IMG/VR virus record: IMGVR_UViG_2547132255_000001
Span: 1-6,655 of that record
Direction: 5' to 3' (one strand)
Length of the DNA stretch: 6,655 nt
DNA from: a virus
Lineage: Monodnaviria; Loebvirae; Hofneiviricota; Faserviricetes; Tubulavirales; Inoviridae
Shown piece by piece: positions 558-6,655 of this stretch. Under the pieces are notes generated by a model. The model saw nothing but the letters and a program-made list of their open reading frames with translations, made no database searches and was not told the origin of the DNA. Each line of letters starts with the position of its first letter. Within the stretch, counting starts at the first letter, position 1. The translations under genes and the position numbers were made by a program.

Positions 558-684
558 AATGGTAAGGATGGCAGAATCTGGCGGGAATCGTTGACACTGG
601 CCGTCAACTGGCTACTATCGACAGTGATTCAAAATCATCCGTTTCTCCAAACGAATCAGAATCAAATGTCTGTCAGCAGTAAGT

Positions 685-716
685 GAACGGCCTGACCTCA
701 CCAATCAGGCCTGTTC
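685..716. repeat. Imperfect inverted repeat (hairpin) in the phage intergenic region
   Basis: GAACGGCCTGA (685-695), 9-nt loop cctcaccaa, TCAGGCCTGTTC (705-716). 7 bp perfect stem plus 4 more bp after a 1-nt bulge. No flanking T-run, so not a terminator. Confidence 0.5.
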
Positions 717-975
717 ATCCAGTTAGTTGGTAAATCTGTACCTGATACACGAGAATCAAACACCACTTCTTCAGTGCCATCACCATGCTCCTGATGTGTC
801 ATGAATTTTTCCATGATAAGGCCCGATGAATGCTGCCGCGCCGAATCAGCCATAACGCTGAAAATGGAAACTGTACGGCTTGGCCAACCCCGGACAGCAA
901 CAAAACAAGTTTTGTCACTGACCGGCGTTATCTTTCAAAACAGACAGTTAACGATTTTTTGTCTGGTGTTTATGC

Positions 976-1002
976 GTGAAATTTCGTGCGTACGAAATTC
1001 AC
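976..1002. repeat. Imperfect inverted repeat (hairpin) in the phage intergenic region
   Basis: GTGAAATTTCGT (976-987), loop gcgt, ACGAAATTCAC (992-1002). 8 bp perfect stem plus 3 bp after a 1-nt bulge. No T-run on either strand. Confidence 0.5.
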
Positions 1003-1199
1003 CACCAATAAACAAACGGACGATGACTGACCGGAAAAGCAATGCCGTCAGCATCATGACCACGCATTACCTGATTGAGAAGCCTTCTGACTTCACGGCG
1101 CTCAGGCCTGGTCATCATCATATTGCGATACCAGGACGGCGATTTATCAAACCATCTGGCACAACTGGCAAAATGTGAACCTACACGACGATAAGACTT

Positions 1200-1239
1200 A
1201 AGGCGGCCACCGGGAAGTCGGTCACGCGCCTTATTTTTT
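1200..1239 (+). terminator. Candidate rho-independent terminator acting on the + strand (antisense to the phage genes)
   Basis: AAGGCG (1200-1205) pairs with CGCCTT (1227-1232), with inner ACCG/CGGT pairing (1209-1212 / 1219-1222), followed immediately by ATTTTTTA (1233-1240) on the + strand. The minus-strand side has only a weak U-tract. Confidence 0.5.
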
Positions 1240-1335
1240 ACAGACATAATAAATCCTCTACGTAACTGAATACCTAGAAGATGTCGTACTGTTCATACCC
1301 CATAAAAGTTAACGCCATAATAAAAATCCATACAA

Positions 1336-2580
1336 TCAGTTCAGGTTGTCCCGGAACAGTTCACCGCTCCTCGCGGCGCTGCGGGGCGTCGCCCTGCTCC
1401 GGTCAACCTTTCTGACCTGAAGCATCACCATAATATCAGTCTTGTTGCTTTCACTGGTACGGGAACCGAAGAAGCTCCAGCCGGAACTGGCCTTACTGTC
1501 TTTCTGTTCAGCAAGGCCACCAAGTAAAATAATATCACCATCTGCAAGGCTGACTTCGGTTGTTACATCACGCTTGATAAGGGTTGGCGAGTTATTGACG
1601 CCGGTTTCAGTGGTCACAAAGTTGGAAAGCTGCTGCTGAATCTTGAGATCCATTGTCCGACTTTTGATTGATGGCGTCACGTTAAACAAAACACCGCTGG
1701 AACGATATTCAACGGATTGCGTTGTCGTATTGTTATTCACCGTAACACTGCCCAGTACTGGCACATCAGAGCCGACTGAAAAAGACGCTGAGGCATTATT
1801 TTTTACCCGCAGTCGTGGCGCACTGACAACAGTAAAACGACTGTCGGTTTTCAGCAGATTGAAAATGGCATCAATGGAGCCGGTTCGAATATTGATAAAA
1901 TTATCCAGTCCGGCAGCACCAACTGAAATATTGAATTTATCAGACAGAATTTTAGCCGCTAAAAGAATGCCGGAGCCGTCAGACTGCGAGGTCTGAACCT
2001 CAAAAACATAACCAGAAACAACCACTTCATCACTCATCGTATCCAGCGAAGTGACCAGTGTTTTCAGGATGGCGATATCCTCTTTCGTACCATAATAAAC
2101 CAGAATATCACCGGTTCGATTGATGTAGTTGCTTGCCCCTGATGAACCTTTTAGCGAATCGTCAGAAATCACGGCTCCACTGTTATTGAAGGAGCCTGAA
2201 ACGTAGCCGCCAAGAATATCAGACAGGTAGGCAACAGAACGGTACTGAGGCGTATAAGTCCATGTATAACGTGGCTTAACCGGCTCTTTCGGCGTATAGG
2301 GCGCGATAAAATCAACACCCTTTTTCGTCCATATTCGAATGTTCATATTGCCAAGATAACGGGTTACAAATTCCCGTTCATCAATATCAGATGTTAACCT
2401 GAATGTAATCATTCGTTCATCATTAACAAGCTGTGGATCTAGCATATACGGGACTTTAAGCACCTCACTGTAAATAAGAGAAATAGCCTCCGGTAGCTTG
2501 ACTTTATTTAATTCAAGCTCTGACCCTGCGAAAGCACATGAAGAAAATAGTAGCGTTAATGCGAGTAAAATCTTTTTCAT
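1336..2580 (-). CDS. Filamentous-phage secretin (pIV-like, GspD/PulD secretin family), 414 aa
   Basis: N-terminal signal peptide MKKILLALTLLFSSCAFA|GS. C-terminal secretin-domain hallmarks (DGDIILLGGL ... WSFFGS ... DIMVMLQVRKV). Start ATG overlaps the stop of the upstream gI-like gene (TAATG at 2578-2582). Last gene of the module, as in Ff phages. Confidence 0.85.
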   Translation of the reverse strand: MKKILLALTLLFSSCAFAGSELELNKVKLPEAISLIYSEVLKVPYMLDPQLVNDERMITFRLTSDIDEREFVTRYLGNMNIRIWTKKGVDFIAPYTPKEPVKPRYTWTYTPQYRSVAYLSDILGGYVSGSFNNSGAVISDDSLKGSSGASNYINRTGDILVYYGTKEDIAILKTLVTSLDTMSDEVVVSGYVFEVQTSQSDGSGILLAAKILSDKFNISVGAAGLDNFINIRTGSIDAIFNLLKTDSRFTVVSAPRLRVKNNASASFSVGSDVPVLGSVTVNNNTTTQSVEYRSSGVLFNVTPSIKSRTMDLKIQQQLSNFVTTETGVNNSPTLIKRDVTTEVSLADGDIILLGGLAEQKDSKASSGWSFFGSRTSESNKTDIMVMLQVRKVDRSRATPRSAARSGELFRDNLN

Positions 2581-5657: not shown

Positions 5658-5670
5658 ATGAATAATGAAT

Positions 5671-5862
5671 TTATGCGGATTTAACGGTACGCAATACCCA
5701 GCGAACGCCAGCGACACCGGCATAAAGTGTTACCAGTGAAGCAGCAACGGCCATAATCGCAACCAGAACTGTACTGAAATCAATGCTGTTCGTCAGCGGC
5801 GATAAATCAACACCACTTGATGCCGCTCCTTCTGCAGCGAAAGTCGCGCCAGAAACAGCCAT
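5671..5862 (-). CDS. Major coat protein pVIII-like, as called from ATG 5862; the probable true start is ATG 5903 in another frame, so the gene appears frameshifted
   Basis: Mature-protein architecture after an AxA site: acidic N-terminus AEGAASSGVD, hydrophobic core, basic C-terminus RWVLRTVKSA. The ATG at 5862 has no Shine-Dalgarno and leaves only a 9-aa leader. A GGAG-preceded ATG at 5903 encodes MFKK and is out of frame by one nucleotide at the A6 run 5892-5897. Confidence 0.7.
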   Translation of the reverse strand: MAVSGATFAAEGAASSGVDLSPLTNSIDFSTVLVAIMAVAASLVTLYAGVAGVRWVLRTVKSA

Positions 5863-5937
5863 TAATGCAGGTACAGCCAGAAAACTAACGATTTTTTAAA
5901 CATAACTCTATCTCCATTACATTTTAAAGGTTCGCAT

Positions 5938-6189
5938 TCAAGCAGTACGAACCATCTTTATTACCTGTCCCACACCTACAGAAAAAAGCCAGAGCAGCAG
6001 GACAGAGCCAAAACCTAATGTCCAGTAATTTCCCATTGCAGAATAATCAATTTGATGAAATGGTTCAGAACGTACCATTATTGCCTGACATTCTTTTGCA
6101 TTGTTCGCATTACATAAATAACCTTCAATACGGTAACCATTTTCAGGAATATGATTATCAAACTGAATATCGAAACCTGATGTATCCAT
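5938..6189 (-). CDS. Hypothetical small membrane protein in the position of the Ff pVII/pIX minor coat genes, 83 aa
   Basis: Lies between the gV-like and gVIII genes; start is 2 nt after the gV-like stop. C-terminal hydrophobic segment WTLGFGSVLLLWLFSVGVGQVI. Assignment is by synteny only. Confidence 0.4.
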   Translation of the reverse strand: MDTSGFDIQFDNHIPENGYRIEGYLCNANNAKECQAIMVRSEPFHQIDYSAMGNYWTLGFGSVLLLWLFSVGVGQVIKMVRTA

Positions 6190-6191
6190 AA

Positions 6192-6509
6192 TCAGCCTTT
6201 TATTTCAGTAATGCCGCCATCTGATGAAATGTTATAAGTTACTCCTTCCCTCCCCTCCATTGACCAGACGCGAACATATACAGGTATCTGGACTAACTTA
6301 CCGATAAAATTATTTGCCTGATTCATTACACCGGCATTAACAAGAGCCTGAGATACACGAATAATAATCTGGTCTTGCTTAGTGCCGCCAAAACCATCAG
6401 GAATCTCTAAGCCAACACCAATTTCATTATAGTATCCCTGACCATTGACCTTATTACGCTGGCGAGCACCAAGCATTTTACCTTTTACAAAAAGACCATA
6501 ATTAGACAT
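6192..6509 (-). CDS. Putative ssDNA-binding protein (gV analogue), 105 aa
   Basis: AAGGAG Shine-Dalgarno 6 nt upstream of the ATG at 6509. Size and position (after the replication gene, before structural genes) match gV. No recognisable motif, so the function is inferred from synteny. Confidence 0.4.
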   Translation of the reverse strand: MSNYGLFVKGKMLGARQRNKVNGQGYYNEIGVGLEIPDGFGGTKQDQIIIRVSQALVNAGVMNQANNFIGKLVQIPVYVRVWSMEGREGVTYNISSDGGITEIKG

Positions 6510-6517
6510 ATCACTCT

Positions 6518-6655
6518 CCTTTAATGCCAGTTACTGGCATGTGAAATACGGTTATAATCGAAAATTAAACCTTTCTCATAAACCCATGATGGAATTTTGG
6601 CTGGTTTGGCTTCAAGAGTACGAACCAACGGAACAACGTTATTAGAATCCGGTGA
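6518..6655 (-). CDS. C-terminal 45 codons of an upstream phage gene, probably the replication initiator (pII/pX-like); start lies beyond the window
   Basis: Minus-strand frame is open from the window edge (SPDSNNVVPLVRTLEAKPAKIPSWVYEKGLIFDYNRISHASNWH) to TAA at 6520-6518; the other two minus frames hit stops quickly. Function is inferred from Ff gene order only. Confidence 0.35.

Follow-up and report, generated by a model that had tools for sequence, protein, structure and literature searches.

Filamentous phages of the CUS-1/Ypfφ type have been described since 2002–2007; their integration at dif, the modules into which their genes fall and a small role in virulence are all part of that description. 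CUS-1 and Ypfφ are dif-integrating phages of the CTXφ class that are 99% identical to each other (PMC4266046, PMC4246890, PMC7307601), this identity between the 8.7-kb Ypfφ and CUS-1 extending over 7.1 kb (PMC4266046). Both are listed as CTXφ-type: the attachment site (attP) is single-stranded, XerC performs the first exchange, replication completes the reaction and the insertion is irreversible (PMC4246890). Ypfφ integrates at dif, rebuilds an intact dif at its 3' end and forms tandem arrays of two to four copies, and virions are lost when YPO2274, YPO2277 or YPO2279 is disrupted (PMC4266046). Here, we analyzed the 6,655 nucleotides (nt) of IMG/VR record IMGVR_UViG_2547132255_000001 (the window), in which positions 558–6655 had been predicted to be the complete Ff-type structural and assembly module of a filamentous prophage at dif.

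We are very confident that the window contains the dif-proximal end of a CUS-1/Ypfφ filamentous prophage inserted at dif. The prophage is a known, ordinary element whose module had been correctly recognized, and its class is indeed already described, as the original prediction had supposed (PMC4266046, PMC4246890, PMC7307601). It therefore carries little weight as a discovery, and what is added to existing knowledge is limited to a frameshift, corrections of annotation and a small overlapping open reading frame (ORF). The analysis covered sequence identity, domain content, junction structure and the conservation of hairpins and ORFs; catalysis, assembly roles and expression would follow what is established for Ff, CTXφ and Ypfφ.

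Relatives of the prophage and integration at dif

The DNA of the window is 99.9–100% identical to prophages of Escherichia coli NC101, STIN_95, strain 998 and others, and its positions 543–6655 share 99.3% nucleotide identity, over 5.9 kb, with the tandem prophage of Yersinia pestis NCTC5923. The resemblance to CUS-1 and Ypf that had been suspected from reading the sequence is thus borne out. At least 80% of the window is carried by 99 of 5,426 complete E. coli genomes, and UTI89 and NU14 also carry the prophage. A megablast search with the whole window gave no match among 50,697 phage records; CUS-1 and Ypfφ evidently have no record there, and identity was therefore established through bacterial genomes.

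The 28-mer dif site of E. coli is present at 530–557 on the minus strand with 0 mismatches (0 of 200 shuffled sequences matched) and directly adjoins the 558–6655 gene block. The junction analysis took in every GGTGCGCATAA site of the window, of the genomes identical to it, of Y. pestis and of a free circular copy. At the gIV-side junction, the XerD arm (530–540) and the central TGTATA (541–546) are of host origin, while the XerC arm (547–557) belongs to the phage and is continuous with phage DNA. The far, hipA-side junction consists of the host XerC arm followed by the phage central region and a phage XerD-like arm. Phage homology reaches position 544, through the shared TGT, and the phage-derived DNA therefore starts 11–14 nt to the left of 558, at 544–547, inside dif. 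Left, right and tandem junctions all agree with an exchange on the XerC side after the shared TGT. The gIV-side junction is the regenerated-dif junction published for Ypfφ (PMC4266046), which makes 530–557 the regenerated dif (attR). Together, these results confirm a filamentous prophage at dif.

The free circular copy is a 9,565-bp circle of E. coli TUM14759 (NZ_CP128883.1, hereafter L006). It is labelled as an untypable plasmid, contains the whole phage at 99.5% identity and can be read as a complete phage genome, presumably in its replicative form. In this circle, two inverted dif-like sites flank a GC-rich hairpin in the attP region (252–358). The attP strand folds at −31 kcal/mol (z = −6.2) into a forked hairpin, with base pairing in the XerC and XerD arms and an internal loop made by the central region. 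The folded strand is the coding strand, which was taken as the packaged one. L006 lies outside the window, and the window itself holds only the XerC arm of the forked structure. As tested on L006, the combination of inverted dif-like sites, forked hairpin and dif homology on the XerC side points to integration of the CTXφ type.

The element would accordingly be a temperate filamentous phage without an integrase. We propose that the attachment region of its single-stranded genome folds into a forked hairpin that mimics dif, that host XerC swaps one strand pair with the chromosomal dif and that replication then fixes the insertion. On the gIV side, this would restore a working dif made up of the phage XerC arm and of the central region and XerD arm of the host.

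Tandem copies were found in NC101, NU14, Y. pestis and a 248-kb IncFIB/IncHI1B plasmid of Klebsiella pneumoniae (NZ_CP132684.1, L007, from about 7973–8000). The copies on the plasmid adjoin a dif-like site, GGTGCGCATAA-TGTACG-TTATGTTAAAT, whose central region is TGTACG. Like the free circle L006, these plasmid copies speak for activity of this type of phage. Integration is therefore limited neither to chromosomal dif nor to E. coli and Yersinia.

Altered copies were also observed. STIN_95 (L002, 14657–22386) has two extra 3.87-kb mini-copies in tandem, which comprise a repressor-like helix-turn-helix gene, gII, gV, orf83, gVIII and a truncated gIII, lack gVI, gI, gIV and attP, and recall the RS1 satellites of CTXφ arrays. 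In Klebsiella spallanzanii SB6411 (L004, 8801–14515), a rearranged and partly deleted relative, with gIII truncated after residue 341 and gIV reduced to fragments, lies beside a perfect dif and represents a decayed array in another genus.

Genes of the structural and assembly module

All substantial ORFs of 999–6655 are closely spaced on the minus strand. Except around gVIII, intergenic gaps measure 0–12 nt, and a Shine-Dalgarno-like sequence precedes each gene. Gene order, polarity and tight packing on one strand are thus as originally described. The extent assigned to the module needed correction: phage DNA begins at 544–547 as seen above, and 558–1335 holds accessory ORFs, attachment DNA and hairpins instead of structural or assembly genes. 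PHROG families were matched for pIV, Zot, pVI, pVIII, pIII and the orf83 product, and the arrangement of signal peptides and transmembrane segments in the module proteins agrees with that of their Ff counterparts.

Profile searches with the 414-aa (amino acid) and 336-aa products upheld the proposed secretin and Zot/pI assignments. The 414-aa product of gIV (2580–1336) matches Pfam Secretin at 1.5e-24 and, over its full length, phrog_1012 ("protein IV of M13") at 1.7e-137. It carries an N-terminal signal peptide and is the predicted outer-membrane secretin through which virions would be exported. The 336-aa product of gI (3590–2580) is a Zot-type assembly ATPase by its matches to Pfam Zot (2.1e-26) and to the Zot-like phrog_197 (1.4e-92). 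The Walker motifs reported earlier are intact, with Walker A (GIPGSGKS) at residue 8 and Walker B (LIVIDE) at residue 85, and a single transmembrane segment spans residues 218–236. The stop codon of gI overlaps the start of gIV (TAATG). A 15-bp in-frame indel distinguishes gI from the Y. pestis and NU14 genes, the extra 15 bp being present in Ypfφ.

The minor coat gene gIII/puvA (5606–3894) encodes 570 aa, matches phrog_3942 at 4.7e-253 and has a product 99% identical to the Y. pestis protein. This product combines a Gly/Ser/Asn-rich linker with a C-terminal membrane anchor (residues 550–568). PuvA is a receptor-binding virion protein in Ypfφ (PMC4266046), and the gIII product of the window is likewise predicted to be the receptor-binding and terminating minor coat protein. 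RefSeq places its start at a GTG at 5456, which gives 520 aa; the full ORF begins at 5606. All homologues, even those at 37% identity, preserve an open frame through the long N-terminus, and the only signal-like hydrophobic stretch (KRLTVYSFIFSFLWVSF) is present in the 570-aa form and lost from the RefSeq start. Because the RefSeq start would drop this stretch, 5606 is the likelier one, and the RefSeq call is probably 50 codons too short. PuvA had no match in Pfam, and a profile search of the PDB returned only hits with E > 0.1. Its AlphaFold2 model has a mean predicted local distance difference test score (pLDDT) of 44 and is confident only at residues of about 205–365.

A 27-aa hydrophobic ORF (5620–5537, minus strand; MEIELWKLGSLLWGIVSAYVVILGLRG) overlaps the beginning of puvA. 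Its ATG at 5620 lies after the gVIII terminator and has a GAGG ribosome-binding site 5 nt upstream, and the ORF covers, out of frame, the first 23 codons of the 570-aa puvA ORF. None of the RefSeq records used annotates it; some Y. pestis records list a longer, 40-aa version, only as "hypothetical protein". The ORF was present in seven of seven diverged lineages whose DNA was compared; in the most distant relatives, with 37% PuvA identity, its sequence is MWDFAVFLWGLLCAWAVIQGLSGR. Comparison of the window with L015 shows eight differences that are synonymous and none that is non-synonymous in the small frame; in the gIII frame, the counts are 0 and 8. Over ten pairs, the ratio of non-synonymous to synonymous changes (pN/pS) ranges from 0 to about 0.2 for the small frame and exceeds 1 for the puvA frame, from which it follows that strong purifying selection acts on the small frame and not on the puvA frame. 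No other ORF of about 30 aa showed signs of selection, and this one stands after gVIII.

The make-up of the 27-aa product, with an acidic N-terminus, a hydrophobic helix and a basic C-terminus, recalls M13 pVII. No sequence match was found among PHROG profiles or M13 proteins. Whether it is a genuine, so far unrecognized structural or assembly protein of CUS-1/Ypfφ-type phages, and a candidate functional analogue of Ff pVII/pIX, appears to us evenly balanced. If this is true, selection on PuvA itself does not shape the 23 codons with which the annotated puvA ORF begins. A real virion protein at this position would fill the place of the missing pVII/pIX-like tip component in a widespread group of Enterobacterales inoviruses.

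The other genes of the module complete the Ff layout. The gII slot (6655–6521) holds the 3' end of the gene for a rolling-circle replication initiator, truncated by the end of the window. RefSeq annotates it as "phage/plasmid replication protein, II/X family", its translation is open as far as the stop codon, and the full gII is annotated in the genomes identical to the window. The adjacent gV (6509–6192) encodes a 105-aa single-stranded-DNA-binding protein (Pfam Putative_G5P, 1.2e-52). It is followed by orf83 (6189–5938), the gene for a small membrane protein of 83 aa (phrog_3679, 1.1e-32) with a C-terminal transmembrane segment (residues 59–80) and a basic tail. This ORF is kept at the same position in relatives, in the slot that gVII and gIX occupy in Ff. 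The major coat gene gVIII lies at 5903–5671 and is considered separately below. Directly 3' of it, a hairpin with a 10-pair stem and a T run (5637–5659, minus strand) resembles an intrinsic terminator; hairpin and T run are preserved by compensatory changes across seven diverged lineages. The gVI-like minor coat gene (3881–3594) encodes 95 aa with matches to Pfam DUF2523 (1e-20), phrog_974 (6.6e-30) and also the Ace-like phrog_306, and its product has two hydrophobic segments.

These assignments suggest how virions would be made. The gV protein would coat newly made single-stranded DNA while pVIII, the orf83 product and probably the 27-aa product stand ready in the inner membrane. An export machine spanning the envelope would be formed by the Zot-type ATPase pI and the phage's own secretin pIV, and pVI and pIII/PuvA would cap the particle and later mediate infection. 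The terminator hairpin after gVIII probably lifts the coat transcript above those of the downstream genes, as in Ff.

Between gIV and dif, orf82 (1247–999, minus strand; WP_001399975.1) encodes a basic protein of 82 aa and has a GAGG ribosome-binding site. Its homologues in Salmonella, Pantoea, Brenneria, Morganella, Xenorhabdus and Pectobacterium share 68–98% identity, are nearly all 82 aa long (full-length matches 79–83 aa) and always lie 3' of the secretin gene on Enterobacterales inovirus-like contigs, often of 8–9 kb. Since it is conserved across genera, orf82 is considered a real gene. Its AlphaFold2 model is of low confidence (mean pLDDT 51). A shortened accessory ORF of 34 aa (698–802, minus strand) derives from the 65-aa WP_001298440.1 (phrog_6642) by an in-frame 93-bp deletion at 786/787. 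The deletion is common to the window, NC101 and STIN_95; the full 65-aa ORF is kept in NU14, Y. pestis, the 9.5-kb circular form and the K. pneumoniae plasmid, and is located at 18140–18337 in L005. Pfam searches at E ≤ 5 returned no match for orf82, the 65-aa ORF or orf83.

A hairpin with 21-nt arms (886–929, inverted repeat I1) lies between orf82 and the small ORF. As a single strand, 558–1000 folds better than 100 of 100 shuffled sequences (z = −4.5), and the hairpin or the larger fold may be a terminator, a packaging signal or a minus-strand origin. The window had no match in Rfam. A promoter scan yielded 16 sites against 14.7 expected from shuffled sequences, hence no excess, and no promoter is claimed. 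On the host side, window positions 1–480 hold a fragment of an acetylxylan esterase/alpha-beta hydrolase gene, which stops about 50 bp short of dif and is a pseudogene in the annotation of the identical genomes.

The gVIII frameshift and alternative readings

The module had been called complete, which goes too far for the copy in the window because its gVIII is frameshifted. In the alignment, the window has six A (A6) at 5897–5892 where NC101, STIN_95 and Y. pestis have seven (A7), which shifts the frame after codon 4. The resulting translation, MFKKSLVFWLYLH, stops after 13 aa, and an alternative restart at the overlapping TAATG would give a 63-aa ORF without the n- and h-regions of the signal peptide. 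The intact form has 77 aa, beginning with MFKKIVSFLAVPALMAVSGATFA followed by AEG, and comprises a 23-aa signal peptide ending TFA/AEG, one transmembrane helix and a basic C-terminus. It matches phrog_2186 at 4e-29 and Phage_Coat_B at 5e-4 to 1.6e-3. The RefSeq coordinates of gVIII enclose the stop codon in the window sequence. Since the frameshift removes the signal peptide, this copy alone should make no usable coat protein.

A tandem copy, if present in the host, could complement such a copy. In CTXφ-type arrays, progeny genomes are templated from an upstream origin to the next origin (PMC4246890); by our own reasoning, the structural genes of the last, dif-proximal copy would then not be packaged in any case. 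The shorter A run may be a real inactivating mutation, the mark of a slippage hotspot or an error in sequencing a homopolymer. As a weaker suggestion, the A7 run might serve as a slippage-prone on/off switch of coat production.

That the window copy is fully intact, its A6 being a homopolymer error of sequencing or assembly, is a serious possibility, although we do not quite incline to it. Only one base of a seven-A run is affected, A7 is the sole form in 99 of 100 E. coli records with gVIII, and the window has just one other private difference from its closest relatives, a C at 1261. The exception among the 100 records is the finished genome of NU14, where an A6 copy and an A7 copy share a tandem array, the A6 copy being flagged as "frameshifted" by the National Center for Biotechnology Information (NCBI). 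The NU14 phage belongs to a different subtype from that of the window, so the two A6 events are independent. Slippage in the A run therefore does occur, or it recurs as an error. Taken as real, the frameshift could suggest a decaying, cryptic remnant carried as passenger DNA from which no phage is made, in line with the 93-bp deletion in the small accessory ORF and with the truncated or rearranged copies of STIN_95 and K. spallanzanii, which indicate that such arrays do decay. We regard this as unlikely: the remaining genes are full length and 99–100% identical to those of the virion-producing Ypfφ (PMC4266046), the 93-bp deletion is in frame and common to many strains, and CTXφ-type prophages normally occur in tandem arrays whose copies complement each other (PMC4246890, PMC4266046).

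Two further readings concern what the module is. RefSeq names the gIV and gI products "type II secretion system protein GspD" and "zonular occludens toxin family protein", and the best matches of the gIV product among solved structures are GspD secretin domains (f1 pIV, 7ofh, is also matched, at 1e-10); on this basis, the locus might be taken for a chromosomal secretion and toxin island unconnected with phage morphogenesis. We attach next to no probability to this and rejected it. Neither the window nor 8 kb of flanking sequence in the identical genomes contains the other gsp genes, the secretin belongs over its full length to the M13 pIV family, and both genes sit amid gII, gV, gVIII, gIII, gVI and the dif junction. 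The same 9.5-kb unit moreover exists as a free circle, and disruption of the Y. pestis homologues abolishes phage production (PMC4266046). The two RefSeq labels are thus misleading for phage pIV and pI. It is also highly improbable that the phage is a true member of the Ff group closely related to M13, f1 and fd, as gene order, similar gene sizes, the terminator after gVIII and the phage's own secretin might suggest. BLASTP and phmmer searches against all M13 proteins found only pIV significant (27% identity, 2e-16); pI was marginal (E = 0.11) and nothing was detected for the others. In a tblastn search of the 50,697 phage records with pI, the top matches were uncultured gut inoviruses (40–46% identity), followed by Pseudomonas, Vibrio and Xanthomonas phages; no Ff phage was among the best 25 matches, and Ralstonia phages were the most numerous matches overall. 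Ff membership was rejected on this near absence of protein similarity, on integration at dif, which sets the phage apart from the non-integrating Ff phages, and on the slot between gV and gVIII, where one 83-aa ORF stands instead of gVII and gIX.

The preferred reading, a CUS-1/Ypfφ prophage equipped with a module for virion production, has several points against it. With its frameshifted gVIII, this copy may be defective, and expression and virion production by the copy of this strain are deduced from the behaviour of related phages. Homologues of gVII and gIX were not found by sequence, and the tip proteins are therefore assigned by position and physico-chemical resemblance only. As to the fold and receptor of PuvA, a Foldseek search of the PDB with its model gave no match at E ≤ 0.001.

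Comparison with known filamentous phages

With Ff (M13/f1/fd), the window phage shares the order gII-gV-small ORF(s)-gVIII-terminator-gIII-gVI-gI-gIV on one strand, similar gene sizes, possession of a secretin gene and, right behind gVIII, a terminator-like hairpin. The two differ in that Ff phages do not integrate, whereas this phage integrates at dif, and in that Ff has gVII and gIX (about 32–33 aa) before gVIII, whereas a single 83-aa ORF precedes and a 27-aa ORF follows gVIII here. "Ff-type" thus holds for the layout of the module and fails for its sequences, of which only pIV is detectably similar to M13. Judged by its genes, the module would work like that of Ff, yet it lies outside the Ff group, and the term describes architecture only.

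The UPφ901/IKe/I2-2 phages (Lineavirus) likewise have Enterobacterales hosts, and UPφ also integrates at dif. They share only gII and gV with Ypfφ, at more than 85% amino-acid identity, and have less than 20% identity to it in structural and assembly genes (PMC7307601). The module of the window therefore belongs to a different lineage.

CTXφ of Vibrio cholerae has in common with the window phage a Zot-type pI and an Ace-like pVI. Their proteins are only remotely similar (phrog_1041 at 4.4e-9). CTXφ is not known to encode a secretin and relies on EpsD of its host, whereas the window phage brings its own secretin, gIV. The folded single-stranded attP and the tandem arrays seen in other strains are again common to both, the XerC-only exchange and irreversible insertion of the CTXφ class (PMC4246890) would be so too, and ctxAB stands in CTXφ where the window phage has orf82 and the small ORF (PMC4266046).

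The closest systems are Ypfφ and CUS-1. Ypfφ (YPO2271–YPO2281) shares the 99.3% identity over 543–6655, the regenerated dif on the gIV side and, as seen in NC101 and NU14, the formation of tandem arrays. It differs by other accessory ORFs at the far (attL) end, outside the window (PMC4266046), by its extra 93 bp and 15 bp and by an intact gVIII. CUS-1 of E. coli O18:K1:H7 (Gonzalez et al. 2002), compared through its description in PMC4266046 and PMC7307601, has the same host species, the same location at dif and the same gene set, including puvA (gIII). At the level of the family, there is no difference between CUS-1 and the prophage of the window, which is a subtype with the 93-bp deletion in its small accessory ORF and a gI shorter by 15 bp, and whose copy in the window carries the A6 frameshift in gVIII.

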